From a virus: a stretch of DNA of 64,000 nt. Where the stretch lies: IMG/VR virus record IMGVR_UViG_3300032132_000001, positions 42,573-106,572 of that record, one strand, 5' to 3'. Every line of letters begins with the position of its first letter. The first letter of the stretch is position 1. Shown piece after piece: positions 1,309 through 55,219 of this stretch. The notes beneath the pieces are model-generated. The model was not told the origin of the DNA. It did no database searches and was given only the letters and a program-made list of their open reading frames with translations. The translations under genes and the position numbers were made by a program.

Positions 1309-1683
1309 CTAGTAGAGTTGTAGGTCGCCGCAAATTGGGTCGATGTTGTCAGGATAATCGGGCCCGATTGAGCAGCATGTGTTAGTTGGTACCCCGCCAA
1401 ACTCGGTGAGCCCTCTATCGGTGATGAGCCAGGCAGACAGCCCTGCTTCTTTCGCAGCTTCGTAGACGGCTAAGAGGTCTTCTTCACTGCTGACCTTGCA
1501 GACGATCTTTTTGAAAGAGTTGTTGATCCAATCAACTTCTGCAGGTCTTAGATCTCTTCCACCGTCTTCACCTTTGAAAGCAGCGGACAGGAAAGCTATC
1601 GAGGCGTGGGAGCCTTGAGCGATCTCTTTCCCGCGCCTCATCTTGAGGTCTTTCCGGATGACGATTATCTGTTTAGGAACCAT
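1309..1683 (-). CDS. peptidyl-tRNA hydrolase, PTH2 family
   Basis: IVIRKDLKMRRGKEIAQGSHASIAF and C-terminal GGVPTNT... pattern typical of archaeal/eukaryotic-type Pth2. Confidence 0.65.
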   Translation of the reverse strand: MVPKQIIVIRKDLKMRRGKEIAQGSHASIAFLSAAFKGEDGGRDLRPAEVDWINNSFKKIVCKVSSEEDLLAVYEAAKEAGLSAWLITDRGLTEFGGVPTNTCCSIGPDYPDNIDPICGDLQLY

Positions 1684-5846: not shown

Positions 5847-6402
5847 GGTGACTTAGGTCGTGATCTGGTCCGAGCATAATCTTCATGCCTCGGATATCGA
5901 GCTTGTCTTTCCTAGATTCTATCTTTCTCCTCTTGGGTTCGAAACTGTCCAACACCTTTTGCGCATTGGACTTCAAACCAGTAAAAGTGGTGACCACTTT
6001 CTGGAAGAACTCAGGATCAGCGATGTGGATATCATCTACCTTGAAGAGCTGTGTCTCTCTTCCATCTCCTAGCCTAGCCTGCAGGTAGATCTCTACGTTG
6101 TCCCAGTGCGTCGGGACCGAGACAGCAGTAAAAACCTGTTGCAAACCATTGCCATAGAGGTTAAGCTCCACGGCGACACAATAGCTGGAAGCCACGCTCA
6201 TTTGGAACGCGTTTACTCTGATGGAGAAATCACTCCCTTCGTGGAAGCTTCGTTCCCAGATGTTCCATCCAGTGCAAACACGATTCTTTTCTACCACTTC
6301 GGCGGCTTCAAGATAGTCTAGGATCTCCTCTAGGATGGTACAACCCATCCTGATCGCTTCAGGGCAATCAGAACCATCTAGATCGTAATATTCTCGCTGC
6401 AT
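5836..6402 (-). CDS. hypothetical protein
   Basis: track ORF. Confidence 0.5.
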   Translation of the reverse strand: MQREYYDLDGSDCPEAIRMGCTILEEILDYLEAAEVVEKNRVCTGWNIWERSFHEGSDFSIRVNAFQMSVASSYCVAVELNLYGNGLQQVFTAVSVPTHWDNVEIYLQARLGDGRETQLFKVDDIHIADPEFFQKVVTTFTGLKSNAQKVLDSFEPKRRKIESRKDKLDIRGMKIMLGPDHDLSHHER

Positions 6403-7199
6403 GTCACTGGCTCCGCACCTCTGAAGATGACCTCTATCTTGTTGGTCACCTTATCGAAGGGTGGCATATCGATGATCTCGTACTCGGTGCGAGCAACAGA
6501 AAGACCAGGATTGTTATGAGCTTCGTGCTTTGGCGGGAGCCTGTCGATCTCGTTGGCAGAGAAGGGTCGCTCTATGACCCTCTTCTGAACCCATGTCCCG
6601 CGCTTGAAGAACGCTGGGTAGTCGTTCCAGTTGATGCCCGCAGCGTGGAGCATCTCCTGCATCTCAGTTCCGTTCTTCTTGAAGAGCTGCTTGTGTGAGT
6701 ACTCCTCTCTTGCAGCCATAGCCACCGAGTTCTTGGTGGCATCCCTCTCCCGCCACAGAAGATAGTTCGCGGCCTCAACGAGGTTTGGAACGACCCAGAC
6801 GCGGCAATCGAAGAAAGCGAGACGACCAGCACGCTCTGTGATGAACTCAGGTACCATCTCGTTGAAGTGGGCTGTCGCCATAGAAGAGAGGATCGAAACC
6901 ATCTTCTGGACTTTGCCATCCATGAAGATCTGGCTCTTGTAGCTGTCACTGTGCCAGACGAGTGAGATCTCATCAGACTGTGTGTACCCCACACAAGCTC
7001 CAGTCTCCTTCACCAAACGAAGGGTTACCCCTTGCATGATGTGAGTCAACCTCTCATCGTACGGGCGCTCCAGTCCACGTGTCCAAGAGCTGAACGTCTT
7101 ACCGTCGATACGGGCGCAGACCGGAAGGAGGGGCAGGAACTTCCCAGTCCCTGCCCGCTCGTATTCCTTCATCCGGTCCCCGAGATTATCGCTGCTCAT
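6378..7199 (-). CDS. Thg1-like 3'-5' nucleotidyltransferase (tRNA-His guanylyltransferase superfamily)
   Basis: RIDGKTF..KP.DERL...YTQSDEISLV...FDCRVWVVP...YLLWRERDATKN parallels Thg1 motifs (RxDG..F, YGQSDExS, FDxRV, YLxWRQxDxxxNN). Confidence 0.75.
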   Translation of the reverse strand: MSSDNLGDRMKEYERAGTGKFLPLLPVCARIDGKTFSSWTRGLERPYDERLTHIMQGVTLRLVKETGACVGYTQSDEISLVWHSDSYKSQIFMDGKVQKMVSILSSMATAHFNEMVPEFITERAGRLAFFDCRVWVVPNLVEAANYLLWRERDATKNSVAMAAREEYSHKQLFKKNGTEMQEMLHAAGINWNDYPAFFKRGTWVQKRVIERPFSANEIDRLPPKHEAHNNPGLSVARTEYEIIDMPPFDKVTNKIEVIFRGAEPVTCSENITI

Positions 7200-7524
7200 T
7201 CTCTTCTACCCACTTGAGGAAAGATGCTTTCATTGCAGGTTTGTTGTTTGTGTACTGGACGCATAGGCGGAACAAAGAGATGTTAGACACCATAGATGTT
7301 CCAAGCATATCTGTTTCCCTGATTTTCTTCAGCAAAAGCTGAAGCTCTGGCCTATATACGGCGATGCCTTCATCTACTTTCTTTTGGTAAGCATCGGTGA
7401 AATTTTCGCCGTCATAGTATTCACTGTCTACTGGTTGCCCTTCAGGGAAGATTGGCCTGAAGATTGTATTGATCGCATCCTCCTCGGCCTTATTCGGCAT
7501 TGGAAGGGGGAACTTGATCTCCAT
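7186..7524 (-). CDS. hypothetical protein
   Basis: track ORF. Confidence 0.4.
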   Translation of the reverse strand: MEIKFPLPMPNKAEEDAINTIFRPIFPEGQPVDSEYYDGENFTDAYQKKVDEGIAVYRPELQLLLKKIRETDMLGTSMVSNISLFRLCVQYTNNKPAMKASFLKWVEENEQR

Positions 7525-8200
7525 CTTTTTCCTTTTTCTCTGGGAGTTTCCACTCTAGGCCAGGGATCTCGAAGATGATGTCTTCGGGGCGACCACGCAT
7601 CATTTCATCCAGACAGACGTGAACAGTGCGGTGACCCTTCACCTGGAACTCTTTCTTCTGGTGATAGTGACCGAAGATCCAATACTCAGGCTTCCACCCC
7701 TCCCACTCCCACATCTGCTGGAACACAGCTTCGTTGCAGGAAACATAGTCGATCTTCAGCGCTGAGTTGGCAACCCAGGGCTTAGCGTCACTGTGGATTT
7801 CATGGGTGACCACAATACGAGGCTTGACCTCTTGGTACAAAGCCAAAGCAGCCATAGCTTGGGCGTAGGTCAGCTCTTCATCCGGCCACCAGTCCCGACC
7901 AATGGTCCGGTGCATGTGGTCGATAGAGTATCCGCCACCAGCGTAGAAGATCCCGGTGTGCTCATCGTACCCAAAATCACCAAGATAGTGGGACGCCCGC
8001 TTGCAGACCGAAGGATTGTCATGGTTGCCCCGGATGAAGCGATGCATCTTAGGATCGCGCTTTCCGAGCTTGTGCAGATTCCCACCCCGGAATAGCCCAA
8101 AGTCACCAACCTGGAGACTGTGCTTTCCTTCTTCGGTCAGTCGCTTTGTCAGCTTCCGCCATTGATTGTACTTGCCGTGCACATCACCGATGAAGATCAT
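7490..8200 (-). CDS. calcineurin-like metallophosphoesterase (PPP/ApaH-like fold)
   Basis: N-terminal IFIGDVHGK, later GNHD and GHYH metal-binding motifs. Confidence 0.7.
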   Translation of the reverse strand: MIFIGDVHGKYNQWRKLTKRLTEEGKHSLQVGDFGLFRGGNLHKLGKRDPKMHRFIRGNHDNPSVCKRASHYLGDFGYDEHTGIFYAGGGYSIDHMHRTIGRDWWPDEELTYAQAMAALALYQEVKPRIVVTHEIHSDAKPWVANSALKIDYVSCNEAVFQQMWEWEGWKPEYWIFGHYHQKKEFQVKGHRTVHVCLDEMMRGRPEDIIFEIPGLEWKLPEKKEKDGDQVPPSNAE

Positions 8201-8904
8201 TTTCCATATACCCTTCGAACGAAGTCCTCCACGAACGGTCCGATCTTATCGCTGTTGCGGTGGACTTCAAACTCGTCTAGCTTGATCGTATTTTTCTGGA
8301 TTGTAGTTTCCAGATCTGTGGAAATCTCATGCTGCCCTTGGACAACAGCTGTTTCTAAGAATTCGATTTTCACTGTGTCCCTGATCGTAGACTTGGAATC
8401 AAGATAGGCTTGCCCCATAGTCCCAGGATGAGAATACCAGATCAGAGGCATAGTCATGACCGAGATCTTCTCATCTTCGATCTGATTGACAGGAGTCATA
8501 GTCTGGAGACCCATGGCGAGCTTGAACCTCTCAATAGTCTTCTCTGCCTTTGGGAAAAGAAGACATACCAGCTGGCCTAGATGCTCATAGAGGTGGAATT
8601 CGAACCACTCGGCTGGCTTGTTTTCAGACCAGTACCGAATGTGATCTACAATCGGACCGGCATGTGAATGCACGATAACCGGATTTGAGGTGTTAGTTGC
8701 CTCATCTAGCATCCAGATGAGCGCATCACATTGTGTCAGCATCTCGTGCTTGTCTAGATCTGCTTTCTGTAGCTCCTCCTCTGAGAGAAGGTGGCCAGAT
8801 TCCCCCACTAGAAGCGGGACATAGGAGATGCAGACGTATTTTCCCTCAGGCATCGAACACTTCCTGAAATGGGCCGATGAACTGCTTATCATCGGAGGTG
8901 TCAA
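8197..8904 (-). CDS. hypothetical protein (possible hydrolase)
   Basis: track ORF; VIVHSHAGPIV segment. Confidence 0.4.
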   Translation of the reverse strand: MTPPMISSSSAHFRKCSMPEGKYVCISYVPLLVGESGHLLSEEELQKADLDKHEMLTQCDALIWMLDEATNTSNPVIVHSHAGPIVDHIRYWSENKPAEWFEFHLYEHLGQLVCLLFPKAEKTIERFKLAMGLQTMTPVNQIEDEKISVMTMPLIWYSHPGTMGQAYLDSKSTIRDTVKIEFLETAVVQGQHEISTDLETTIQKNTIKLDEFEVHRNSDKIGPFVEDFVRRVYGK

Positions 8905-9679
8905 GGATTGCGAAGATCACGTCGTGGAATGCACCATCGAACTCGCCGGTAAGGAACTCGTGGAACCATTGGGCTACATCGGCCCCGTTGTTTCCAAAGA
9001 CGCCGCACCCCCATGCACCAAGAACTAGCTGGTCCTGGCCCTTATGGACCGCAAGGGTAAGCATCTTTCGCATTCGCTCTTGCATGACCGGATCGGCTTG
9101 GTCCAGCAAGCTTTCATCCAGCGACCCCTTGTTCACCGCTGGGGTCGTCAGATAGTTGAAGTTCCTTGGGGCGATCAATTGGTCATAATCGTTCCTGAAT
9201 GTTGGAACTTCAGGAGAGAAGATCATATGATCGCTGTACAGTCTGCTCTCTGTACGATTGAAGTCGTACATCTCTTTGTGAACAGTTAGTGTGGGGTAGA
9301 GCGCAGAACCGCGCGCCAGACACTCTTCCTGCGCTTGCGCGCCACGGATGAACCCACCACCTGGATGCGTACCAGATGCGAAGTTCAAAATCATGATCTC
9401 TGCATCTTCGCCATGTCTTTCAGATAGGCGATAGGCAGCAGAGAAAGAAGATTCGTTCACCACTTGGAATTGTGTGTCGTAAGGCATCGGCTGGTCACCC
9501 AACATGCCACGCAAGTCCACTAATGTCTCAGGTCCAAGGAGCTGAGACGAATCGGTGGCCCACTCTATCGCATCTTGGATGTCATGTACCTCACCATTCA
9601 TATCCTTGTATTTTCCTTGGATGATGATGGTGAGAGTCTCTTGAGCGATTTTGGCCAACTTTCTACGTTGTTTTGTCAT
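8846..9679 (-). CDS. bacterial-type poly(ADP-ribose) glycohydrolase (PARG/DUF2263 macrodomain)
   Basis: LNFASGTHPGGGFIRGAQAQEE carries the GGG-X7-QEE PARG signature. Confidence 0.75.
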   Translation of the reverse strand: MTKQRRKLAKIAQETLTIIIQGKYKDMNGEVHDIQDAIEWATDSSQLLGPETLVDLRGMLGDQPMPYDTQFQVVNESSFSAAYRLSERHGEDAEIMILNFASGTHPGGGFIRGAQAQEECLARGSALYPTLTVHKEMYDFNRTESRLYSDHMIFSPEVPTFRNDYDQLIAPRNFNYLTTPAVNKGSLDESLLDQADPVMQERMRKMLTLAVHKGQDQLVLGAWGCGVFGNNGADVAQWFHEFLTGEFDGAFHDVIFAILDTSDDKQFIGPFQEVFDA

Positions 9680-9693
9680 TTGATCTCCTTTAA

Positions 9694-9767
9694 TGAGAGC
9701 GCTGGGATTCGAACCCAGGACCTACAGATTAAAAGTCTGTTGCTCTAACCAGCTGAGCTACGCTCCC
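9694..9767 (-). tRNA. tRNA-Lys (anticodon TTT)
   Basis: cloverleaf GGGAGCGTAGCTCAGCTGGTTAGAGCAACAGACTTTTAATCTGT...; loop CTTTTAA. Confidence 0.85.
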
Positions 9768-9771
9768 TGAC

Positions 9772-10314
9772 TTAGATGATCTCTACGCCGATGCAATCAT
9801 CATCCTTGTTGAAGTCGAGAATGACTCGACCATCGACCATCTCTTGCTGTCGGTGTGACCTTCTCTCGCTACCGACTGCGACATATGCTAATGGACCGCA
9901 GCCGGGAGGGTTGGAATATCTAACTGTGATCTCTGTCACACCTGCTGGGATTTTGAAAGTCTTCTTCATCATCCCAGGCTGGAGGACAGCGCAGTCGATC
10001 TGCTGCTCTTCTCCGTTTGTCCATCGCACTATGGCATTGCAAGGAGAAGAGTGGCCAATCAGCTTGAGCACCACCCCCACTCTGGTTTTGTCTCCCGCTG
10101 TGCACTCCACGATGTCCCCAGGGTTGAAAGGGTAGATGGTACCAAACCTGCCAATGTGGGTCTGCTTCATTTCCTCTTCCTGTTTGCCCATCGTCGCCAA
10201 GCCTTCGGCGCAAGGCGGTAAGCCGTGGAGCTTACCCAGTGCACTGGTTTCCATTGGTAGTGACCCACGATACAACGTGGGCAATGCTTGTCTGGTTCTC
10301 GATGCCATGAGCAA
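9772..10314 (-). CDS. hypothetical protein
   Basis: track ORF; true start may be an internal Met. Confidence 0.45.
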   Translation of the reverse strand: MLMASRTRQALPTLYRGSLPMETSALGKLHGLPPCAEGLATMGKQEEEMKQTHIGRFGTIYPFNPGDIVECTAGDKTRVGVVLKLIGHSSPCNAIVRWTNGEEQQIDCAVLQPGMMKKTFKIPAGVTEITVRYSNPPGCGPLAYVAVGSERRSHRQQEMVDGRVILDFNKDDDCIGVEII

Positions 10315-10379
10315 ACGCTAAACCAATACTTGAAGAGTTTTCTTCCCCTGTACTCTTCCATCTTTAGCATCGGATTCCT

Positions 10380-10718
10380 CTAACTATCGTGTCCTTCTGG
10401 GTCCCACGGTTTGTACACCACATGCTTGAAACTCTGGCTAGAGCGATGGAGTATCCTTTCTTTCCGCTCTACCAGGCAAGCGTCACAAACGAAGATTTCC
10501 AGACTGTAGTCCGACCCAATTGCCATGTTAGGATCAAACACAGTGGAGCCATAATGGCCCCATGTGTAGAATGCTGTAGCACCATGGGGCTGGAAGCCGT
10601 ACAGCTCTTCGTCGTCCGTACTATTAGGACGACCAATAGCGTCTTCCAGCTTCTTCTCGCAGATGAGACAGCACATCTGGAACTCTGGAGCCTGGTGTTT
10701 GTCGTGGCGATCTCGCAT
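10380..10718 (-). CDS. Cys-rich hypothetical protein
   Basis: track ORF. Confidence 0.4.
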   Translation of the reverse strand: MRDRHDKHQAPEFQMCCLICEKKLEDAIGRPNSTDDEELYGFQPHGATAFYTWGHYGSTVFDPNMAIGSDYSLEIFVCDACLVERKERILHRSSQSFKHVVYKPWDPEGHDS

Positions 10719-12651: not shown

Positions 12652-12984
12652 TTACAACTTTGGAGATTTGCCTTTAGCAAGTCTGTCAGGAAATTCAACC
12701 GCTTTACCATAGATTGAGTTCAGCCCAACCCAGCCGTTGATGTGACCCTTGTTGTTTGCAATCTGGTATCGCTCACCATCGATTGCCTTGACCAGGTGGA
12801 GGTACACCCGACCTTTCACCTTAACCAAGACGATATCGCCGCATTCGGGTCCACCAGAGGTGAAGGGGGAGAGGATCACTTTCTCTCCGCTCTTCACTTT
12901 CGGCTTCATCGAGTGGCCCTTTGGTTGGATCGTCGCTTTCTCTCCGCTCTGGAGTTTTTGGATTGCTCGGTCTGCCCAGTTCAT
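12652..12984 (-). CDS. S24/S26-family (LexA/UmuD-like) serine peptidase domain protein
   Basis: PKGHSMKPKVKSGEKVILSP...GDIVLVKV matches the GxSMxP...GD(I/L)V catalytic-core pattern. Confidence 0.55.
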   Translation of the reverse strand: MNWADRAIQKLQSGEKATIQPKGHSMKPKVKSGEKVILSPFTSGGPECGDIVLVKVKGRVYLHLVKAIDGERYQIANNKGHINGWVGLNSIYGKAVEFPDRLAKGKSPKL

Positions 12985-13080
12985 AGCCTTGTATCGTTTT
13001 GATGACCATTATGGTTTCCTTGCCGCACCTGTCCATGCCGAGCTACAACTAACCCCACCGGGCCGGACCGTACCATATGG

Positions 13081-13154
13081 TGGTCCCTGCTGGACTTGAA
13101 CCAGCGACCTCCACGATGTCAACGTGGCGCTCTAGCCAACTGAGCTAAGGGACC
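13081..13154 (-). tRNA. tRNA-Val (anticodon GAC)
   Basis: GGTCCCTTAGCTCAGTTGGCTAGAGCGCCACGTTGACATCGTGG...; loop TTGACAT. Confidence 0.85.
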
Positions 13155-13225
13155 AACAACCTTGCCTTTCCGTACCATTCCCATCCATGCCTCACCGCAC
13201 CTAGACGAGCCGTACCAAGCCAAAA

Positions 13226-13302
<77 letters not shown>

Positions 13303-13308
13303 TGTTAT

Positions 13309-13566
13309 CTAACAGGTGGACTTCGTTCCGTTCACGTTGATGCAATCTACAACTTCACACTCTTCTAGAAGTGCAACATCGGTATCTTCGACTCGGACCG
13401 ATACGATGCCCACTAGATCGAGGAAGTGATGCTTGTAGATTGGGATCGCTTTGTCATCTGCAAAAGCGAGAAACCTCTCCAGGTTGCGTCGGTTCAGTTC
13501 CTTCACCACTGTCTTATCCGGTGCTGATTCTACTCTCAGGTTGACCAGATAGTTGTACTCACTCAT
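13309..13566 (-). CDS. hypothetical protein
   Basis: track ORF trimmed to MSEYNYL start (ATG 13564-13566) preceded by GGAGAGGAGAGG. Confidence 0.4.
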   Translation of the reverse strand: MSEYNYLVNLRVESAPDKTVVKELNRRNLERFLAFADDKAIPIYKHHFLDLVGIVSVRVEDTDVALLEECEVVDCINVNGTKSTC

Positions 13567-13630
13567 CCTTGCCTCTCCTCTCCATGCGGCGCACCGCCTG
13601 TCCATGCTGCGCCTGACCAGGCCACGAAGG

Positions 13631-14179
13631 TTATCGTGTCTCTCCAAACGGAGATTGCATAGGACCCCTCTCCTCGGCAAGCTCAAGGATGGGAGTCCCA
13701 TTCATCACTTGTTTCAACATGCGGTCGTACAACACCATATAGACCGCAGCGCCCAGGTTCGCACAGTGGCGAATCGGGATCTTTACGAACCGATGGCAGT
13801 GCCTCATCATCGTGGATGAAATGCTGCCATCTTCTGGGCCAAACACGTACACCGGATTCTCTGGGTGTTCAAAGTCCGTGAGCAACTCAGAGTTATCCCT
13901 CAACTCGATTGCCACCGGGGTAGACCCCTGAGGGAATTGGTCGAAGGGGAAGTCGAACTGGATCATCTCCACGTCCTTGTATCCCTTCATCCTTTCTTCT
14001 CGTGGGAGCCGCTTCTTCCCGTCCAGCCGTACACGGTTGCCCGTCCACCAGAGTTGACTCAAGCCGAAGCAAGAACATGCCCTCAACGCAGCCCCGACGT
14101 TGTGGTCGTATTTTGGGTTGGTCAGGATGATAGCCGGGGTCTTTCCCACCGGCTTCATGTTCTTGCCGACTTGTTTCAT
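13631..14179 (-). CDS. SpoU/TrmH-family RNA 2'-O-methyltransferase (SPOUT)
   Basis: ILTNPKYDHNVGAALRACSCFG and YVFGPEDGSIS motifs of the TrmH family. Confidence 0.7.
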   Translation of the reverse strand: MKQVGKNMKPVGKTPAIILTNPKYDHNVGAALRACSCFGLSQLWWTGNRVRLDGKKRLPREERMKGYKDVEMIQFDFPFDQFPQGSTPVAIELRDNSELLTDFEHPENPVYVFGPEDGSISSTMMRHCHRFVKIPIRHCANLGAAVYMVLYDRMLKQVMNGTPILELAEERGPMQSPFGETR

Positions 14180-14188
14180 CTCATCATC

Positions 14189-14839
14189 CTATGCTGCGTT
14201 TGGGTGCTTGAACGGTTTCTCTACCAGTAGATCAACAAATTCCTTGATCTGCCTGGCAACCTTGCCTCTTGGTGCGATGCTGAAGCGTTCGAACGCTTCC
14301 TCCTTGATCCACTTGCGCAGATCGGAGGCGAACTCATCCGAGCGAGCTTTCCAGTCACATACCATTTCGGCTATATAAACCCTCGGCATCTGGTCGACGC
14401 CGCCCCAGTATTCTGGGTGGTGAGCATTGGTCTTGACGTGCTGACGATGAGCCAGCTTTAGCTGGTCACTTGTTGCATTCTCGTGCAAGCATTCCCACTC
14501 AATGCCATAGAACTTGGAGTTATCGTGGATGAGGGAGTTGGCAATCAGGATCCGTCCAAGGTCCGTTTCTCCTCTCTCAATCAGCGCCATGCCCAACTTG
14601 TGTGCGCCATCTTGCACGAGCTTGATATGGCGCACCACAGCGTTTAGGTATCGAAGCTCTTCTTTGAGAAGGTCGTCGGTCCTTCGTTCAGGCAAGGCTA
14701 CTTTCTTTTTCGCCGTTGCCTTCTTCTTAGACCCCTTCTCAGCTTTACTCTCTTCATCTGACACAGGATGTACTCCTAGGAAGACCTGGCTATCAGGAGC
14801 CAATTGACTATCTACGTGCTTCTTGTGGCTCACCGACAA
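14189..14839 (-). CDS. hypothetical protein (possible HD-like metal site)
   Basis: track ORF; SLIHDNSKF...HRQHVKTNAHHPEYW. Confidence 0.4.
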   Translation of the reverse strand: MSVSHKKHVDSQLAPDSQVFLGVHPVSDEESKAEKGSKKKATAKKKVALPERRTDDLLKEELRYLNAVVRHIKLVQDGAHKLGMALIERGETDLGRILIANSLIHDNSKFYGIEWECLHENATSDQLKLAHRQHVKTNAHHPEYWGGVDQMPRVYIAEMVCDWKARSDEFASDLRKWIKEEAFERFSIAPRGKVARQIKEFVDLLVEKPFKHPNAA

Positions 14840-18926: not shown

Positions 18927-19376
18927 AGGTGTACTCCTTCTAAAGTCCTTGCTGGTACGAATGCTCGCCCAGCGTTTCCCAAAGTGCACAATTCGAAATA
19001 CGAGCCCTTTGGGATTATTGCGGCACAGGGCCGCTCCAACATGGCACGGAACTAAAGCTCTTTCCCGGTGAATAGAACAGGTAGCACCGTCCAGATTCTC
19101 CATCTCTGGTGCGGATCCTGGGTCAACGAGGAGGGAAAGAGCTTTAGTAGGGTGGGGAGCCATCACAGGTTTCGCATTTAGAGTGCGGCCTGCTTGCACA
19201 GACGTCCAGAATCTGAACCGTTACGCTGCTCGCAGCTTTGTCTCAAAACGGATTGCTCCGAGAAGAGAGCCCACAATGATGGCTCCCCGTGGGGAGGCGC
19301 GTTCGGGGTTCCCGCTTTCTTTTGGGTACTTCCTATATCCAGCGGCAGTCCTACTAGCACCTCCCCGTGACATCAA

Positions 19377-19781
19377 CTAGAAGTCGATGTCGGTGGCCTC
19401 GCCACCATCGCCACCAGCCTGGACCAGCTCGACCGCCAGGATGTCCAGCGTGACGAACTTGCCCTCGGAGTCGAGACCCTTGAGCATGGCGTCGAATGCC
19501 TTGCGACCCTCACCGGACTGGTGAGTGTCCCACATGGCGTGGGTGTCAGCCTGGACCAGGCTAATCTCGGCACCCTTAGGGGTGCGGAGGAGATAGCGGA
19601 GCTGCGACTTGACGCCACTGCTCTTACGGCGAGAGTTGGGGGAGCCGAGACGGACCGCCTCGGGATCGCCGCCAGCCAGGCCGATGTCACGTGCCACCTC
19701 ATCGTGGTCACGGTTCAGCTGGTTCTGCTTCAGAGTCTTACGACGGAGAGTGAGCTTGCCAATCGACTTCTTCTTAGCCAC
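19377..19781 (-). CDS. P-family paralog 2 (VAKKKSIGKLTLRR leader, THQSGEG core, EATDIDF tail)
   Basis: track ORF 19377..19823; GTG 19779-19781 with GGGGGT upstream. Confidence 0.5.
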   Translation of the reverse strand: MAKKKSIGKLTLRRKTLKQNQLNRDHDEVARDIGLAGGDPEAVRLGSPNSRRKSSGVKSQLRYLLRTPKGAEISLVQADTHAMWDTHQSGEGRKAFDAMLKGLDSEGKFVTLDILAVELVQAGGDGGEATDIDF

Positions 19782-19987
19782 AGTAACCCCCTGCGGACAA
19801 GTGCGTCGCCTAGAGCGGCGCATACATGGAGCTGCCGAAACCGGACAGCATGTTTAAGCTGCAACCGAAAAGTTCGGTCACCGCTTGCAAGCCAGAAGGC
19901 TTGATCTATGAGCAGCGAGCAAAGACCATCATGATGATGGAGATAATTATCAAGCCCGCTGACATTAGTACAGGTCGCCAGAAACCT

Positions 19988-20815
19988 TCAGTCGTCTGTT
20001 TTTCCATTCGTATCAGATACGGCTGGAATAGTGATGACTTTGGCAACCATCGAGCGTTGAACTTCATCCACCAGAATCTTGTCTACTGTGCCACCATCAG
20101 GGATGTCCAGGTAAGCACGAGTGATTCCGATGATACGACGCTCTTCATGGGAAGCTAGCAGGACCATGATTGGGACTATCATCATGCCTAGGACCCAACC
20201 ATTCATCCAGCAAAAGGCGAATGTAGGAATCGCCGTTGCTCTTCCCACCCATTTGGTGATCCTAGTTGAGCGGAGTACGTCACCGTTCCAAACGGTAAGC
20301 ATAGACCTTACCACTCTACCACCGTCCATCGGCCAAATGGGAAGTATGTTGAACAAGACAAGCATGACGTTGATTTCAATGAAGAAAGACAACATCAGCA
20401 TGTAAGGGTGTGGAATAGGGAGGAGGACCAGCGGCAGAGTGAGTGCAACCAAGATGAGGTTGACTATTGGTCCTGCCACCGCTACTAAGAACTCCTTCCT
20501 TGGCTCGAAGACGTTCAACTCGACTTCGGCCATTCCACCTATGAAGACTAGGGTGATCGAATTGCACTTCCACCCTAACCCCTTGGCTGCCCAGACATGG
20601 CCAATTTCGTGGAGTGTGACTACAAACCACACCACTGCCATGAACGGGATGACCTTCCAAGCGCCCATCGCCAAGAGGACCGCACAAAATATGAAGAGTG
20701 AGCTGCCAATTATAATCGGCACACCCATTACGGTTGCTATCTGCCTCTCCCTGAATAACTCAAGCAAGTGGAGAGGAGACAATACGATCTTGACGAGGAG
20801 CTTGGTTTTATCCAT
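19988..20815 (-). CDS. M50-family site-2 protease-like integral membrane metallopeptidase
   Basis: HEIGH zinc motif in a TM helix plus LPIWPMDGGRV second motif. Confidence 0.7.
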   Translation of the reverse strand: MDKTKLLVKIVLSPLHLLELFRERQIATVMGVPIIIGSSLFIFCAVLLAMGAWKVIPFMAVVWFVVTLHEIGHVWAAKGLGWKCNSITLVFIGGMAEVELNVFEPRKEFLVAVAGPIVNLILVALTLPLVLLPIPHPYMLMLSFFIEINVMLVLFNILPIWPMDGGRVVRSMLTVWNGDVLRSTRITKWVGRATAIPTFAFCWMNGWVLGMMIVPIMVLLASHEERRIIGITRAYLDIPDGGTVDKILVDEVQRSMVAKVITIPAVSDTNGKTDD

Positions 20816-23820: not shown

Positions 23821-24399
23821 TTAGTCCTTGATGGTATACTTCTTGTAGAGTTCAACATCGTTCAGCTGACTGTGAATCTCTTCGGCCCAGAGGTGAGATG
23901 CCCCACTGCCATCCTCCCCGACACCAGGCTCGTTCTTGGAGGTCCAGACCGCGAAGTTCCAATACGGCGGGAACTTCTCATTGTTGTATCGTTGCACCAT
24001 CCCACGGAACTGCTGCCATGGGACACCGTGCTTCTGTCGGCGGTACGCCGTCATCGGATCGACCGGGATCTCAATGATTTCGTGGCCGTACCCGAAAGAG
24101 TTGGCGACCGAGATGTACGGTGCAAGCTCGATAGCACCGAGGTTCGTGTTATCCACGATCACGAACTTGAACTGGTTGCCAAGCGCTTCGATATACTTGC
24201 TCATGCATCGAGCGTGCGCTTGAGGCAGCTTGCCTCGCTTGAAGTCGTACTTCAAGCTTCCGTCTTCCTCTTCGCTGTAGAAGAAGTGGTCGGCTGACAC
24301 CACGACCACACTCCCTTTGCTTCTCTTCTCGATGATCAACTTCTTCACCAAGGTGGACTTCCCTCCACCTGGTACGCTCCTCGGCAGAATAACGTGCAT
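23821..24399 (-). CDS. P-loop kinase, polynucleotide 5'-kinase-like (AAA_33/T4 Pnk kinase-domain-like)
   Basis: Walker A PGGGKST, downstream VVSADHF and VIVDNTNL. Confidence 0.55.
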
Positions 24400-27399: not shown

Positions 27400-27656
27400 T
27401 AGTCTTTCTGATGATCTTCCGGATCTTGTTTGCCGTGGTAGATGAAGTAAGCTGTCATACCCGCAACGACCAGAGCCATAACGATCCCAATGACCATTGT
27501 GAAACCGGCTGCTTCTTGGTAGTACTTCACATCATCGAAATGGGAACATCCAGCAGCCCCTGCCCAGATGAACATCACCACGACGATTGAAGCTTTGATC
27601 AGGGTGCGGATCACTTCAAACTGTTGAGAGTGAGTCACCTTTTCAGAATAGCTCAT
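27399..27656 (-). CDS. small membrane protein (2 TM)
   Basis: track ORF. Confidence 0.45.
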   Translation of the reverse strand: MSYSEKVTHSQQFEVIRTLIKASIVVVMFIWAGAAGCSHFDDVKYYQEAAGFTMVIGIVMALVVAGMTAYFIYHGKQDPEDHQKD

Positions 27657-29020
27657 TTCAACTCCTTCTTAGCCCATTCCATGGCCGATTCTTGGTCAGC
27701 GAAGGCTCCGTCCATCTGAGCTTCGTACGCTTTCTTCAGAAATACGCCAAGCTCTTTACTAGGCTCCATCAGCCCAGCCTCGATCAGATCACGGCCGTTG
27801 AGGATTCGCTTCGCGCCTTCATTGAGCACGCGCTTCTCACTTGCGATCTCAAGCATCCGAAGGCAGTTCTCCGACTTCCCACGAGGAAGAGGGGGGCGAC
27901 CAGAGTGGTCAGCTTCACACAGCCGTGCAAGCTCTACGATGCTCGCCGGCTCCAAACGCTTGGCAAGACGACGGACAGCTCTCGACGTAGCCGCTTGGTT
28001 GTGCGCCATGTGGTTCCCGACCATGGGCAGGATCTTATCCTTGTACTTCTTGTGACACCCAATTGAGTCCAGGAACTCTTCTGCGATAGGCACACCACCA
28101 CGCTCATGACCACGTGATCTCCACCTGCCATCTTCGAACTTGGTGTACTTTGCCTTGCCGACGTCATGGCACAGAGCGGACAGCACCAACATGCCACGAT
28201 CTTCCACATCAAGCTCGTCACGGATGGCGATTTCTGCTGCGGCATCGACCACGAACTTGGTATGAGTCCAAGCGCAGCCTTCAGGATGCCACTCGGGATC
28301 CTGAGTCACTCCGATCAGAGCGGTGAGCTGCGGGTAGAGATCGAGCCAGCAGGTGTCCTCCAGGAAGACCAGGCCAGAGCTTGGTTTGATGGACTTTGTT
28401 GCCCATTTCCACCACTCTTCCCACACTCGCTCAACAGGAAGGTCTTTGTACTCATCCTTCAGCGTGTTGCAGAGATGCGACGTGTCTGCCCAGACCGCCA
28501 TGTCAAATCGCCCTGTGAACTGCATCCCTCGCAGCACACGAAGAGGATCTTCGGCGAAAGCTGGAGATGTGTGGCGGAGGAGACCGTACTCGATATCCTT
28601 CAGCCCTTTGAAGAAGTCCAGTGTCTCGCCGGTCAGTGGATCGAAGGCTAGGGCATTCATGGTGAAGTCCCTGCGAGACGCCGCTTCCTCCGGTGTCATC
28701 GTCGGGTCGGGGTCCACCATGAAGCCCTTATGCCCACGCCCTCGCTTGCTCTCTCGTCGGGGAAGAGAGACATCGAACTCAACGCCACCTTCCTTGTACT
28801 TGAGTACGCCGAAGCTCTTGCCTACCGCATCGACCTTGCCCTTAGATTCCAGGAGTTCTTGGAGCTTATCGGGGCTCATGCCGTAGACTTCGACGTCGAT
28901 GTCCTTCCAGTCCTTGTTTCCCATCTGGGAATCTCGGACGGCACCGCCCACAACCAGGACACGGGCAGCGCCGTTCTCGGTCAGGTACCGAGCTAGTTCC
29001 TTGATCTTTTTCATGTCCAT
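27653..29020 (-). CDS. cca: tRNA nucleotidyltransferase (CCA-adding enzyme), class II head domain plus HD domain
   Basis: VVGGAVRD...DIDVEV head motifs, RRDFTMNA, HD..GK; start moved to MDMKK (ATG 29018-29020) after GAGGTG. Confidence 0.8.
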   Translation of the reverse strand: MDMKKIKELARYLTENGAARVLVVGGAVRDSQMGNKDWKDIDVEVYGMSPDKLQELLESKGKVDAVGKSFGVLKYKEGGVEFDVSLPRRESKRGRGHKGFMVDPDPTMTPEEAASRRDFTMNALAFDPLTGETLDFFKGLKDIEYGLLRHTSPAFAEDPLRVLRGMQFTGRFDMAVWADTSHLCNTLKDEYKDLPVERVWEEWWKWATKSIKPSSGLVFLEDTCWLDLYPQLTALIGVTQDPEWHPEGCAWTHTKFVVDAAAEIAIRDELDVEDRGMLVLSALCHDVGKAKYTKFEDGRWRSRGHERGGVPIAEEFLDSIGCHKKYKDKILPMVGNHMAHNQAATSRAVRRLAKRLEPASIVELARLCEADHSGRPPLPRGKSENCLRMLEIASEKRVLNEGAKRILNGRDLIEAGLMEPSKELGVFLKKAYEAQMDGAFADQESAMEWAKKELK

Positions 29021-29028
29021 GTTCACCT

Positions 29029-29343
29029 CTACGACAGGAAGTCTTTGAAAGCTCTTTGCCACTGGTCCAGATCCAAGAGCTTCAGTTGGTCTTTGGGGAA
29101 CGATTTGATGCACAGATCAGGTTCGTCCAACCCGTTATGCTGGTACTTGCCTTCCTTGAAGATCAAACCAGTCACTGGCAGATCGTCTTCGATCTCCAGA
29201 TCCCACAAGTACAACTCGATGACGGTGTCTCTTGTGGCAGTCATCTCGATGGCGGAGCGAGCTTGCTCTGGAGTGATCTCCTGCATTTCTTCGAAAGGAA
29301 GCTCTTCTCCACCGCACCAAAAGTATGCAATATGCTTAGTCAT
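29029..29343 (-). CDS. hypothetical protein
   Basis: track ORF trimmed to MTKHIAYFW (ATG 29341-29343). Confidence 0.4.
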   Translation of the reverse strand: MTKHIAYFWCGGEELPFEEMQEITPEQARSAIEMTATRDTVIELYLWDLEIEDDLPVTGLIFKEGKYQHNGLDEPDLCIKSFPKDQLKLLDLDQWQRAFKDFLS

Positions 29344-35827: not shown

Positions 35828-36021
35828 TCCATCCTCATCAGCATGCTGTAGATGTCCTCTACCGACAGCTTCTTCAGTTCCTTTCGCTTCTCACCAGGGA
35901 AGTGTGCCTTCCCCGGCTCACTCAGGATCATGGCTATCGCCTTCTGACGGAACGCCGTGAGGCATTCCTGTCGGTACAGCTCCACGGCTTCGTTTAGTTG
36001 ATCTGCGAGCCAGACGTCCAT
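35824..36021 (-). CDS. hypothetical protein
   Basis: track ORF. Confidence 0.4.
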   Translation of the reverse strand: MDVWLADQLNEAVELYRQECLTAFRQKAIAMILSEPGKAHFPGEKRKELKKLSVEDIYSMLMRME

Positions 36022-37178
36022 TAAGCATCTTCTCCTTCGTCGTGGAACGCGATGCCGCCGGTCGGCTTCAACATCTTCCAGATCTGCTCCTCGATCATCC
36101 GTCCGTCCAGCAAGCTGAACATGAGATGAGGATGGGTGCAGTTTTCCTTGATGTAGAGCGCTTGATCCTTCCGAGTGTCGGTCGGACCCTGAGGGACCTT
36201 CTTGATCTCGTTGGACGCCGCGAACCGGATCCGGTGAGCCGCCTCGTACAAGCCCATCGCCGTCTCAGTGAGCCAGTGATGGAACTCGTCCGGAACATCG
36301 ACGCCCAGGAGGATGTCCTCCTTGACCGTACCACCAGTCTTGAGGACTTCCCAGATCCGGCGAGGGGTCAGACCACAGAGGAGCTTGTGGCGGATCTTGT
36401 ACCACTCGAACTTGATCTTGATCCGCTGACCCGACGAGAACTTGAGGACGAAGCCCTCTCGGTTCTCTTCGTCCATCGCGTCGAGCTGAGCCGGGGTGAG
36501 GTGTTCGAGATCGTACCGCTTGCAGATCTCGAATAGCTGCTCGTTCTCCTGGTCTAGCCCAGTTGTACCATGCTGGATGCTCGTTTCACCCCAGGTGACG
36601 AATGTCGCCAGCTGCTCATAGGGGACTTCTGAACCGGACTCGGTGTGAATCACGGTCAGGAGGGTGAGCTTAGTGTTCGGACCGTAGTCAACCACGATCT
36701 GAGGCCGACCACCTTCCTTGGCGTAGATCACCTCGAAAAGGTAGGTGTAGTCGTGATGGAAAACGTCTTGAGGAAGAGCGTGGGCCGGGCAACAAACCCG
36801 GAGCAATTCTTCCCGACCGATCACCGATTGGTCCGAAGTGAAGCTACCTCGGGTCGCCGTCACCAGCTCACCCTTGTAGACGCAGGCGATGAACAGCGAA
36901 CCGTCCATCTTCTCCATCACCTCGAAGGTCTCGTTGGGTGCTTCCACCTCACCGAGGTTGAAGAACTTGCCGAAAGGACGTCCAACGATCTCCTTCGGCT
37001 TCCCGGTCTTCTCGGGGTCGGTCGTGATGAGACCGCGACACGTCTTGGTCGCCGCGTTCCACACCCGATCGAACTGCGTCTTTGGCGTGTAGTTGTGAAT
37101 GAGGAGAGGGAGGGTCGGATGGACCTGGGTCTTGATAAACCCTTCCTCTATCATCTTGTCAATCAGTTCCCAGTCCAT
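36021..37178 (-). CDS. ATP-dependent RNA ligase, T4 Rnl1 (gp63) family
   Basis: CRGLIT..GRPFGKFFNLGE...MEKMDGSL...EGFVLK...KIKFEWY align with Rnl1 CRGIMF..RPMEKFFNL..KEDGSL..EGYVAV..KIKSDWY; start MDWELIDK at 37176-37178 after GGAG. Confidence 0.8.
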   Translation of the reverse strand: MDWELIDKMIEEGFIKTQVHPTLPLLIHNYTPKTQFDRVWNAATKTCRGLITTDPEKTGKPKEIVGRPFGKFFNLGEVEAPNETFEVMEKMDGSLFIACVYKGELVTATRGSFTSDQSVIGREELLRVCCPAHALPQDVFHHDYTYLFEVIYAKEGGRPQIVVDYGPNTKLTLLTVIHTESGSEVPYEQLATFVTWGETSIQHGTTGLDQENEQLFEICKRYDLEHLTPAQLDAMDEENREGFVLKFSSGQRIKIKFEWYKIRHKLLCGLTPRRIWEVLKTGGTVKEDILLGVDVPDEFHHWLTETAMGLYEAAHRIRFAASNEIKKVPQGPTDTRKDQALYIKENCTHPHLMFSLLDGRMIEEQIWKMLKPTGGIAFHDEGEDA

Positions 37179-37180
37179 GG

Positions 37181-37441
37181 TTATTTCTCCACGTGCTCGC
37201 GTTCTGCGAGAATGCCCTTGATCAGGTCGTACCTCTCTTGCCAGCTCCGATAGCGGGCAGCATCTCCTTCGACCCAATCTTCATACGCAGCTGCACCACA
37301 ACCACAACTGCACTTTGAGGAAGAACTTCTGAGTGCCCTGACTTTCTTGAAGACGGCAAGAAGGCGCTTGGTAGGCAACTTCCTCAACTGCTCTTCCTTC
37401 AAGTCCAATGCGCCTTGGGGTTCCATGGTCGTCTCCAACAT
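37181..37441 (-). CDS. small hypothetical protein (start at motif ATG MLETTMEPQ, or 37426)
   Basis: track ORF trimmed. Confidence 0.4.
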   Translation of the reverse strand: MLETTMEPQGALDLKEEQLRKLPTKRLLAVFKKVRALRSSSSKCSCGCGAAAYEDWVEGDAARYRSWQERYDLIKGILAEREHVEK

Positions 37442-39266: not shown

Positions 39267-39342
39267 TGGCGGGTCATACGGGATTTGAACCCGCAACACA
39301 CGGTTTTAGAGACCGTTGCTCTACCAATTGAGCTAATGACCC
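39267..39342 (-). tRNA. amber-suppressor tRNA (anticodon CTA, reads UAG), class I, CCA encoded
   Basis: GGGTCATTAGCTCAATTGGTAGAGCAACGGTCTCTAAAACCGTGTGTTGCGGGTTCAAATCCCGTATGACCCGCCA; perfect 5-bp anticodon stem ACGGT/ACCGT, loop CTCTAAA. Confidence 0.75.
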
Positions 39343-46187: not shown

Positions 46188-47107
46188 CTGCCCCTCCTGA
46201 GCAAAGAGATGTTGAGCTTCTTACTGATAGCTCTGTCAACAGCATAAAGCCCGCCCTCCAAAAAGGAGGGCGGGCCACCATTCACCTAAAAACAAGCACC
46301 CGCCACAGATTCATTATGGCAGCAGCTGTCCCCGTGGGCGGGCAATTGGGTGACAACCTTCACGCTGCAACTCTGGCGGTTCAAACCGCGTCGGTCTACA
46401 TGACGTCTCCTCGCTTTACGCTTAGGGTGCTAGTTGACAACTGGTTGAATCCCGACCCCATAAAGGAGTCGGGCGTTACCCATGTTAGACAGGTTGGATT
46501 TGGTGGGAAGTTGAATGTGTTTGGAGCTTATGGGGGAGGAGGGGGAGAGATCGGCCTCTCCGTCTTTTTCCTTGCCCTTCCCCGCTTGACAAGAGTCCAT
46601 TACAATACCTGACCACCGGTTGAGTACCAGGAAAGCAGGGAGAGCAAAGGAGAGGGCAGGAGAGCTGGTATCTTCGGGAACCCGAAAACCTCTGCGCGGG
46701 GCAATGGCTCCTATCTGTGACCTAATATTGAGCCTCGCACTGTCCCCCACTCTTATGCAAAAGGGGTCTACCCCTCTCTTCAGTGCACTCGTGTGATATT
46801 CGAGCACCCACTGAGTGTTGACAGTACATTGAGCTTCGCCCTTCTTCTCCACAGGATCCCTCATATCCCCAACATGACACGCGCATTCCTCCCTGGGGGA
46901 ACAATCTCAATGTGACCTAGTGGGCTAAGTCCCTAGTTGACTATTGCTCCACCCGTAAGGGCGTTAGTTAACAGGCACTTATCAGCGCCTTATCAACCTA
47001 ATATTGGAGGAGGGACTTGACACTAGACCGAGCAAACATTGACTCACCCACTCCTATATGAGCCCGGTTTGAGTCAGGTAGGGTCTGACTGACAATCTAT
47101 AGAAAAA

Positions 47108-47136
47108 GGCCCGCCCCCACATAGTAGGGGCGGGCC
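47108..47136. terminator. GC-rich palindromic hairpin GGCCCGCCCC-n9-GGGGCGGGCC (one of about 13 similar units)
   Basis: read directly; others at about 38614-38635, 39135-39157, 40636-40656, 41178-41199, 42081-42102, 42970-42990, 43697-43717, 44008-44029, 44963-44993, 45446-45465, 45646-45669, 45853-45874, 46249-46275. Confidence 0.6.
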
Positions 47137-47163
47137 TCGGGTACTGCGGTCGCTAGGGGTCTC

Positions 47164-47523
47164 CTAGATGTCCAGCTCGTCGGCCTCGGCGGCGAGGATG
47201 GCGTCGGCCAGGTCGCTCGGGGCGACGGCCTTGACCTCGACGAACTTCAGCTGGAAGCGCGACTTCTTCACCTTGGCCAGGATGTCCTGGGTGGCCTGGG
47301 GCTGGTGAGAGAGGACGAGCGTACCCGTGCTGGTGAGGTGGAACACGGTGCCCTTGTCCGTCTTGCAGACCAGGGCCACGCACTCGCGGCCGTCACGGGA
47401 CTTGTCCTTGTTGGCGACGCGCTTGCCCTTCGGGGCCTTCGCCTGGACGGCAGCGCCGTTCTCGATGCTGTAGGCCAGGGCGTCGGACGTGAGGGACAGG
47501 AGGATGCGGAGGGCGGTCTTCAT
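47164..47523 (-). CDS. P-family paralog 5 (divergent; acidic AAEADELDI tail); last minus-strand gene before strand switch
   Basis: track ORF with AAGGAAAGGA RBS. Confidence 0.45.
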   Translation of the reverse strand: MKTALRILLSLTSDALAYSIENGAAVQAKAPKGKRVANKDKSRDGRECVALVCKTDKGTVFHLTSTGTLVLSHQPQATQDILAKVKKSRFQLKFVEVKAVAPSDLADAILAAEADELDI

Positions 47524-47546
47524 GGTGTACAGTCCTTTCCTTGTAC

Positions 47547-47700
47547 GGGGGACCGTCCCCTTTTAGGGGGACTAGTCCCCCTAGCGATAAACATACTATC
47601 CACGGCGGGACACTCCCCCCCACAGATGGGTGGGGGGGCCCGCCGCCCGCCCCCCGGCAACGGGCGGGGGCGCGCCCCCGGCGGGGAGGACCTGGTTACC
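47547..47700. promoter_or_regulatory. divergent intergenic region with three near-perfect G/C palindromes and G-tracts (bidirectional promoter and/or replication-associated element)
   Basis: GGGGACCGTCCCC, 18-bp AGGGGGACTAGTCCCCCT, and CCCCCCCAC-n6-GTGGGGGGG, followed by GGGCGGGGGCGCGCCCCCGGCGGGG. Confidence 0.45.
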
Positions 47701-47768
47701 AGCTCTCCAGCGCGACAATATATTCCTCACGCGGGGCCCTTCCATATCTTCCTTCGTATTTCAGCCAC

Positions 47769-54561: not shown

Positions 54562-54562
54562 A

Positions 54563-55216: not shown

Positions 55217-55219
55217 TGT

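Follow-up and report, generated by a model that had tools for sequence, protein, structure and literature searches.

A bacterial-type PARG gene in the viral window

We analysed a 64,000-nucleotide stretch of viral DNA (positions 42,573 to 106,572 of IMG/VR record IMGVR_UViG_3300032132_000001), hereafter called the window. On its minus strand, at 8846..9679 (stop included), lies an open reading frame (ORF) of 277 amino acids that runs from ATG to TGA and is free of in-frame stops under every genetic code tried. A Shine-Dalgarno sequence, AGGAG, can be read 5 nt before the ATG (9685..9689, minus strand). An initial annotation, made from the sequence alone, had proposed that this gene encodes a phage version of the bacterial-type poly(ADP-ribose) glycohydrolase (PARG), a macrodomain enzyme of the DUF2263 type, and the profile matches, catalytic residues and predicted fold described here all bear this out. 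The hidden Markov model search suggested in that annotation returned full-length matches, well beyond the short motif: the Pfam profile PF10021 (PARG_cat_microb) aligned over positions 1-146 of 146 (E=6.1e-41, 140.6 bits against a cut-off of 23.5) and the NCBIfam profile TIGR02452 over positions 1-264 of 266 (E=2.1e-72, 243.8 bits against a cut-off of 50). When the ORF was compared by phmmer to the PDB, the sole matches were PARGs, those of Thermomonospora curvata (3SIG, E=1.7e-52; hereafter TcPARG) and Deinococcus radiodurans (5ZDA-G, E~4e-52; DrPARG). No family in PHROGs matched the phage PARG, and none of the PADLOC defence-system models matched it at E<=0.01.

The GGG-X6-8-QEE signature noted in the initial annotation corresponds to residues 107-119, GGGFIRGAQAQEE (9323..9361, minus strand), a GGG-X7-QEE loop that extends from G107 to the Q117-E118-E119 triad. 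In this loop, E118 and E119 align with the catalytic E114 and E115 of TcPARG (named in PMC8120803), and E119 with E112 of DrPARG, whose E112A mutant is inactive (PMC6445106). The diphosphate-binding loop, GAWGCGVFGN (G221 to N230; 8990..9019, minus strand), is the same as in TcPARG, and F228 within it is aligned to F227, which stacks on the adenine in that enzyme. We scored residue conservation in two alignments, with 19 and with 47 relatives: N99, G107-G109, Q117-E118-E119, G221, A222, G224-C225-G226 and N230 were invariant across both. The full set of PARG catalytic and ADP-ribose-binding residues is kept, and the enzyme is predicted from its sequence to be catalytically intact.

An AlphaFold2 model built from 48 sequences (predicted local distance difference test score 95, predicted TM-score 0.92) shows a macrodomain fold together with the helical extension at the N-terminus that characterizes bacterial-type PARGs. 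In Foldseek comparisons the model superposed on TcPARG (3SIH, 3SIG and 3SIJ) with TM-scores of 0.90-0.94 and root-mean-square deviations of 1.5-1.6 Å over 275 columns, and on DrPARG with TM-scores of 0.81 (normalized to the query) and 0.90 (to the target). Non-PARG macrodomains, MacroD-type and others, reached TM-scores of only ~0.4. Given the profile matches, the conserved catalytic and ADP-ribose-binding residues and the fold, we consider it practically certain that ORF 8846-9679 is a phage-encoded bacterial-type PARG.

One feature of TcPARG is absent from the phage protein. In TcPARG, R268 forms an ionic pair with D261 over the 2'-OH of the adenosine ribose, and this ribose cap confines the enzyme to exo-cleavage. 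The phage protein has F267 at the position of R268, and the Asp is kept as D260; these positions follow from its alignment to D260 and T267 of DrPARG. The cap Arg is not family-defining, and exo versus endo behaviour is not predictable from its loss.

PARG lies in a tRNA-maintenance gene island

The initial annotation also placed PARG beside tRNA-Lys and among RNA-repair genes, and both observations held. On the minus strand, a 180-aa ORF (9772-10314) is followed by tRNA-Lys (anticodon UUU; 9694..9767, minus strand; ARAGORN, and Rfam RF00005 at 76.4 bits), which ends 14 nt upstream of the PARG start codon. Downstream of PARG come an orphan ORF of 218 aa (8197..8853), a calcineurin-like metallophosphoesterase of 236 aa (7490..8200; PF00149, E=7.6e-10; phrog_1649, E=9e-22), which is a candidate RNA-end healing phosphoesterase, a small ORF of 112 aa that overlaps both its neighbours (7186..7524), and a Thg1-like 3'-5' nucleotidyltransferase (6378..7199; PF04446, E=3e-27; phrog_4717, E=1e-85), of a kind acting in tRNA 5'-end repair or maturation; more small ORFs follow. 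All are on the minus strand, and genes overlap at each junction from PARG through the Thg1-like gene. The ATG of the orphan ORF overlaps the PARG stop codon (ATGCCTGA), and at its other end the orphan's stop overlaps the metallophosphoesterase start. Searches of Pfam, NCBIfam, PHROGs, PADLOC and the PDB gave no match to this ORF, and among 5.8 billion proteins it has a single weak homologue, 35% identical over 62% of the ORF; its position, translationally coupled to PARG and the metallophosphoesterase, suggests that it works jointly with PARG. Scans of the locus for consensus promoters and terminators gave no excess over shuffled sequence.

Further RNA-related genes lie on the same strand of the window: a peptidyl-tRNA hydrolase, PTH2 (1309..1683; PF01981, E=5e-28), a SpoU-family RNA 2'-O-methyltransferase (13631..14179; PF00588, E=5.5e-15), an AAA_33 P-loop kinase that is a candidate polynucleotide kinase (23821..24399; PF13671, E=2.4e-10), a CCA-adding enzyme with PolyA_pol head and HD domains (27653..29113; PF01743, E=4e-20, and PF01966), whose phage homologues carry the annotation tRNA nucleotidyltransferase, and an RNA ligase of the T4 Rnl1 type (36021..37277; PF09511, E=3.4e-20). 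DUF5662 and HD_4 proteins are also encoded on the minus strand of this island. The local gene search covered the window and 10 kb past its left edge, that is 74 kb of a genome of ~397 kb. Within this region, tblastn and Pfam searches detected no ADP-ribosyltransferase (ART), PARP, sirtuin, Tpt1/KptA, NADAR, Nudix or NAD-salvage gene, and none of the neighbours that typify bacterial PARGs (NADAR, NrtR, Tpt1, Macro, ARH, NAMPT). Two radical-SAM proteins are encoded among orphan ORFs past the left edge of the window, on the same strand and 12-19 kb downstream of PARG (12872-13939 and 19318-20172 in locus L247).

The carrier is a jumbo phage

The identical PARG protein is encoded on two contigs, one of 397,419 bp and the other a Logan contig of 176,964 bp (SRR9663116). 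PHROG families match the genes neighbouring PARG, these genes have their closest relatives in uncultured phages of 485-635 kb and in jumbo phages (201phi2-1, CcrColossus), and a Gp23 major-capsid match (Pfam, E=2e-8) was obtained when 66 window ORFs were scanned as a batch. These four observations support a phage origin. The window itself holds 10 tRNAs and tightly packed short genes, mostly without database matches. No phage in GenBank resembles it in DNA sequence; the carrier is a ~397-kb jumbo phage without a cultured relative.

The same batch of 66 ORFs gave one Response_reg match (E=3e-6) and one DnaJ_CXXCXGXG match. The ORFs behind the Gp23 and Response_reg matches were not among the 10 largest candidates, and local phmmer searches with CheY, or with a receiver-like ORF from a faecal phage contig described below, were negative. 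Iyer et al. tied a "cRec" domain to ADP-ribose and RNA-repair systems, and the Response_reg match may represent this domain.

At ~47000-48000 the coding strand changes from minus to plus, GC content falls from ~0.58 to ~0.49, and the GC and AT skews flip sign, which probably marks the boundary of two divergently transcribed genome modules. The greedily picked ORFs 31-531 and 711-1157 lie on the plus strand at the left edge, where public gene calls stay on the minus strand (L247, 10514-11965), and are probably spurious. One of the tRNAs (39267-39342, minus strand; Rfam 72.6 bits) has the anticodon CTA and resembles an amber suppressor (Pyl according to ARAGORN). Recoding of TAG lacks support: read with the standard code, 1-47 kb already reaches a coding coverage of 92%, and the stop codon that ends the most ORFs in the greedy set of the window is TAG. 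The TAG-merged frame 54530-56080, considered as a split capsid gene, was rejected as such; it rather consists of a phosphoesterase-like ORF and then a charged low-complexity ORF. The former (54539-55216, plus strand) shows calcineurin-type phosphoesterase motifs by eye (DPHFNH, GDW, GNHD, GHSHG) and had no Pfam match at E<=0.001; after a single TAG, the latter continues in frame for 286 highly charged residues, up to 56080.

PARG relatives in other large viruses

An alignment-based scan of IMG/VR returned 421 viral stretches encoding PARG relatives, many of them on contigs >200 kb, unlike a scan of viral contigs with the single protein, which gave no match. We grouped 80 of the 421 stretches, with other loci gathered, into 48 viral lineages at 70% identity, and counted genes within 10 kb as neighbours. 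The nearest relative, at 59% identity, is encoded on a 5.6-kb metagenomic contig (L002), which shows synteny to the window through SpoU, three shared ORFs, tRNA-Lys and PARG; its tRNA-Lys is ~1 kb upstream of PARG. The next-best matches had 44-48% identity, and the named ones are bacterial TIGR02452 proteins, for example from Gemmataceae (48%) and Chitinophaga (~42%). The other viral PARGs are 27-42% identical to that of the window, against 46-48% for bacterial proteins. Since bacterial proteins are closer than other viral PARGs, the sequences suggest that the window PARG was acquired from bacteria independently of other phages. Of the phages in GenBank, Bacillus phage G (gp114), all Lak megaphages and two huge uncultured phages (LR756502 and LR756511) encode homologues, as does one faecal contig.

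QEE and the diphosphate loop are kept in 48/48 viral lineages. In one subclade (L039, L040, L041, L056, L063, L070, L025, L065, L018 and L084) the third Gly of GGG is replaced by M, Q, K, A or L, and in many of these variants the loop ends in GQ(D/N)P; judged by these residues, they could be a separate subfamily whose substrate contacts differ.

Recurrent neighbours of viral PARGs run in the same direction as PARG. They include a Thg1-like gene in 5 of the 48 lineages (the window and four others; directly adjacent in L009 and the L039 group), a homologous metallophosphoesterase (again the window and four others, 5/48), Ro60/TROVE-vWA (6/48), a 2H "Swiss-army-knife" phosphoesterase (5/48), a NAD-dependent ligase, adjacent or near (5/48), RtcB, a CCA-adding enzyme and NADAR (3/48 each), and Tpt1 (1/48). 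At least one gene for RNA repair or RNA quality control (Thg1-like, Ro60/TROVE, 2H, RtcB, CCA-adding or Tpt1) lies within 10 kb in 18 of the 48 lineages; at least one tRNA gene is found in 20/48, and at least three in 13/48. Six tRNA-rich lineages fall in one syntenic clade. An obligate PARG-Thg1 pair is ruled out, because 0/80 Thg1-like loci had a PARG despite the four other PARG lineages near Thg1-like genes. PARG is an occasional resident of such RNA islands and not an obligate partner in them.

In a clade comprising L014-L017, L019, L021, L023 and L024, Ro60/TROVE-vWA, PARG, a GIY-YIG/LAGLIDADG homing endonuclease and a vWA protein are followed, a few kb downstream, by an array of 7-20 tRNAs; a 2H phosphoesterase is often present. 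Here a Ro60-type RNA quality-control module adjoins PARG. The contigs are mostly 266-480 kb (34 kb for L014, 63 kb for L019). On the faecal phage contig (L006, MT835651.1), a 130-aa ORF directly 3' of PARG (10158-10550) looks receiver (Rec)-like by eye (MKVL..., ...LIITDMHFP...), which recalls the cRec-Macro linkages of Iyer et al.

Phage Tpt1 is found mostly in Erwinia, Dickeya, Klebsiella and Clostridioides phages, all of them without a PARG match, and Lak phages are not in the Tpt1 list. As PARG-bearing and Tpt1-bearing phages overlap little, phage PARG is no companion of phage-encoded Tpt1.

Bacterial PARGs neighbour NAD, ADP-ribose and RNA-end genes

We then counted co-directional neighbours of PARG at the loci of 80 bacterial relatives (L167-L246), grouped in 51 lineages. 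NADAR was beside PARG in 16 of the 51, NrtR, the ADP-ribose-responsive Nudix regulator, in 15, Tpt1/KptA in 11, two Macro families in 7 and 4, ARH in 7, NAMPT in 5, a NadR-like gene and DUF4291 (a family with no assigned function) in 4 each, and RtcB in 3. These clusters tie the family to the NAD/ADP-ribose network and, via Tpt1 and RtcB, to RNA-end chemistry; they look like an NrtR-governed regulon for ADP-ribose and RNA-end processing.

Removal of ADP-ribose from RNA as a possible function

The biochemistry of bacterial-type PARGs bears directly on what the phage enzyme may do. Of the hydrolases tried by Lu et al. 2025 (PMC11833690), only two bacterial-type PARGs, SCO0909 of Streptomyces coelicolor and DRB0099 (that is, DrPARG), reversed the 2'-OH ADP-ribosylation of RNA made by RhsP2. 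Both protected Escherichia coli from this toxin, and SCO0909 had the highest activity on RNA carrying ADP-ribose on the 5' phosphate. The same authors, for whom the role of bacterial-type PARGs is unknown, proposed immunity against RNA-targeting ART toxins. The bond in the 2'-OH RNA adduct is chemically identical to the ribose-ribose bond (1''-2') of poly(ADP-ribose) (PAR). In published assays bacterial-type PARGs were inactive on guanosine-linked ADP-ribose of RNA.

Reversal of host ADP-ribosylation in general, as proposed in the initial annotation, is plausible. Because RNA ADP-ribosylation agrees with published biochemistry as well as with the gene surroundings, we tentatively prefer, by analogy with these enzymes, a role of the phage PARG in removing ADP-ribose from RNA, particularly tRNA, at the 2'-OH or at terminal phosphates. 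If it works like the solved homologues, a terminal ADP-ribose would be bound in the macrodomain cleft by the GAWGCGVFGN loop and the stacking F228, and Glu118/Glu119 would promote hydrolytic cleavage of the O-glycosidic bond at C1'' of the ribose, which sets ADP-ribose free. The putative substrates are ADP-ribose adducts on the backbone 2'-OH, or on the 5' or 3' terminal phosphates, of RNA and especially tRNA. PARG would thus "de-block" RNA first, before the phosphoesterase, kinase, Thg1-like protein, CCA-adding enzyme, Rnl1 ligase or the translation machinery use it. That no ART, PARP or Tpt1 gene was found in the 74 kb searched, and that PARG and Tpt1 phages rarely overlap, suggests a host-derived modifying enzyme, which could be an ART of a defence or toxin system.

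Several observations weigh against this role. We know of no anti-phage defence that makes RNA ADP-ribosylated on the 2'-OH or on phosphate ends; CmdT was reported to modify adenine N6 in mRNA. The AAA_33 kinase and the Rnl1 ligase, although on the same strand, are 14 kb and 26 kb from PARG and thus outside its operon. At the 80 viral loci that encode the closest Thg1-like proteins, no PARG lies within 10 kb, and in 22 of the 48 viral lineages neither RNA-related genes nor tRNAs lie near PARG. On contigs >200 kb, with the Ro60 clade collapsed, proximity to tRNAs is ~2x the expectation, which is a rough personal estimate on which we claim no significance; the RNA-context signal is moderate, with a baseline that is such an estimate and not a genome-wide control. 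The bacterial neighbourhoods concern NAD/ADP-ribose metabolism (NrtR, NAMPT, NadR, NADAR, Macro, ARH) as much as RNA. Finally, the surveys of the Aravind laboratory (PMC7824862, PMC9503650) predict soluble ADP-ribose derivatives as the main substrates of phage Macro domains.

The family was founded on PAR hydrolysis, demonstrated with both TcPARG and DrPARG. In this classical role the phage enzyme could degrade protein-linked PAR that comes from a PARP-like enzyme of the host, or from a PARP or ART encoded elsewhere in the phage genome, to tune or erase PAR during infection. Some jumbo phages do encode PARP-like ARTs (PMC7824862), and our PARP/ART search covered 74 kb of the ~397-kb genome. 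We nevertheless judge this role unlikely: neither the window nor the 10 kb past its left edge yielded a PARP or ART, PARylation endogenous to bacteria is a rare phenomenon with poor documentation, and the gene setting is one of RNA maintenance, not of transcription control or DNA repair. Moreover, the protein-proximal unit is beyond PARG, and DrPARG leaves Glu- or Ser-linked mono-ADP-ribose in place (Cho et al. 2019, PMC6445106); ordinary mono-ART toxins would therefore not be reversible, which makes the protein ADP-ribosylating toxins listed among the candidate targets in the initial annotation unlikely ones. A PAR-type bond also occurs outside PAR. The Thoeris signal 1''-2' glycocyclic ADP-ribose (1''-2' gcADPR, or 2'cADPR) has its ring closed by a ribose-ribose O-glycosidic bond of the PAR type, and Manik et al., who found both 2'cADPR and 3'cADPR to be cyclised by such bonds, drew the parallel with ART-made linkages. 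PARG might then destroy this signal or the by-products of NAD-dependent RNA repair, ADP-ribose cyclic phosphate (ADPr>p) and ADP-ribose 1''-phosphate (ADPr-1''-P), and the clustering of bacterial relatives with NADAR, Macro, ARH, Nudix-NrtR and Tpt1 genes speaks in favour of such soluble targets. We place slightly less weight still on this possibility, as the searched literature holds no report of PARG acting on gcADPR, the window has no Tpt1, and phage PARG and phage Tpt1 seldom co-occur. The anti-Thoeris proteins Tad1 and Tad2 are sponges, and a pathway of the T4 Pnkp/Rnl1 type leaves no 2'-phosphate that would require Tpt1; both facts count against soluble targets.

The bacterial neighbours NrtR (15/51), NAMPT (5/51) and NadR-like (4/51) would rather suit an enzyme of the NAD+/ADP-ribose economy, one that frees ADP-ribose from conjugates for recycling or signalling in infection as in the NrtR-linked clusters. 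NAD-reconstitution pathways are known in phages, and at one viral locus (L018) Nudix/NrtR-like and NAMPT genes directly follow PARG. For the window PARG this seems improbable, since searches of the window and the adjacent 10 kb turned up neither NAD-salvage nor Nudix genes and the ADP-ribose in conjugates would presumably be small against NAD pools. Most doubtful of all is the DNA target named in the initial annotation, in which PARG would strip DarT-type ADP-ribose from the bases of phage DNA as an anti-DarTG factor. Phages do carry antitoxin-like hydrolases against DarTG, and PARG is a macrodomain, as is DarG. However, DarT makes N-glycosidic base adducts, which human PARG, MacroD1 and ARH3 fail to remove (reviewed in PMC9967889); ADP-ribose on thymidine is reversed by macrodomains of the DarG/TARG1 type such as SCO6735; the known phage anti-DarTG factors are DarG- or NADAR-like; and the phage PARG has no PADLOC match and stands in an RNA context, not one of DNA replication. 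We regard DarT reversal as disfavoured and highly improbable; on DarT substrates, the searched literature holds a report for human PARG and none for the bacterial type. Of the targets listed in the initial annotation, RNA ADP-ribosylation is thus the one that fits both biochemistry and context, and DarT-modified DNA and ADP-ribosylated proteins are unlikely ones.

If the phage PARG does remove ADP-ribose from RNA, this step would join healing, sealing and the rebuilding of CCA and 5' ends among the RNA-repair steps of phages, and hosts would use RNA ADP-ribosylation against phages. One may go further and see PARG as a dedicated counter-defence enzyme, in which case its presence in the tRNA-repair islands of many jumbo phages would hint at an undescribed immunity that puts tRNAs or other structured RNAs out of action by ADP-ribosylation of the 2'-OH or terminal phosphates, as RhsP2 or Tpt1 do it. 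PARG would then clear the adduct ahead of the phage enzymes for healing and sealing; we find this doubtful. Still more speculative is a variant in which PARG would cleave the 1''-2' bond between the riboses of 2'cADPR, the Thoeris signal. The occurrence of an intact-looking PARG in a phage tRNA-repair island and on hundreds of large viral contigs offers in any case a natural test system for the proposal of Lu et al. From a practical standpoint, it would put a function to phage genes that lack annotation, gp114 of phage G for example, and to a family absent from PHROGs.

Comparison with known systems

A bacterial-type PARG in a phage had no description that we could find in open-access papers and bioRxiv; mentions of "PARG-like" proteins in the phage literature proved to concern ParG partition proteins. 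The novelty thus appears to be a PARG of a well-defined family in a phage, where it is seemingly undescribed in the searched literature. The surprise to specialists is limited, as macrodomains are common in jumbo phages: in the surveys of Iyer et al. (2021, 2022; PMC7824862, PMC9503650), Macro domains were found in 56% of jumbo phages and some phage Macro and NADAR proteins were placed in KptA-2H RNA repair; the PARG type is named 0 times. The Macro and NADAR domains of jumbo phages, and the DarG-like and NADAR factors that counter DarTG, are likewise phage ADP-ribose hydrolases of the NAD-ADP-ribose conflict network. They differ from the present enzyme in having MacroD/TARG1/DarG-type or NADAR folds and other bond specificities (ester bonds or N-glycosidic base adducts). 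The phage PARG is not of the DarG type, in view of its PARG-type fold, its TM-scores of ~0.4 to other macrodomains and the lack of a PADLOC match.

The viral PARGs of phage G, the Lak phages and others are full-length homologues in very large phages, several of them near tRNA arrays and genes for RNA repair or RNA quality control. The phage G protein gp114 (9995-10825 in L003/L007) is 40% identical to the window PARG and carries no functional annotation. In the same genome a classical macrodomain, gp122 ("Appr-1-p processing", 14191-14670), lies 3.4 kb downstream of gp114, and a tRNA cluster ~6 kb upstream.

Among the bacterial enzymes, SCO0909 belongs to the same family (bacterial-type PARG/DUF2263), a likeness drawn from its published description; its gene is chromosomal, and no RNA-repair neighbourhood is reported for it. 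TcPARG (3SIG/3SIH; Slade et al. 2011) is 39-40% identical to the phage enzyme over the full length and shares the GGG-X7-QEE and GAWGCGVFGN loops and the stacking Phe. It differs by the R268 cap, replaced by F267 in the phage enzyme, and by its carrier, an actinomycete and not a phage. A further parallel is DrPARG (DRB0099; 5ZDA-5ZDG; Cho et al. 2019; Lu et al. 2025), which is 42-43% identical and, like the phage enzyme, lacks the Arg cap, with Thr267 where the phage PARG has Phe267. DRB0099 shares its operon with a ligase and an HD-phosphatase/polynucleotide kinase (Pnk) (PMC11833690), a set paralleled by the phosphoesterase, kinase and ligase of the phage island. In D. radiodurans these activities are joined in the DRB0100-DRB0099-DRB0098 operon, whereas in the phage only the phosphoesterase is in the overlapping string, the kinase and ligase being encoded 14 kb and 26 kb away. 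The partners of PARG in the phage operon are others than those of DRB0099, namely the orphan ORF, the phosphoesterase of the calcineurin type and the Thg1-like enzyme.

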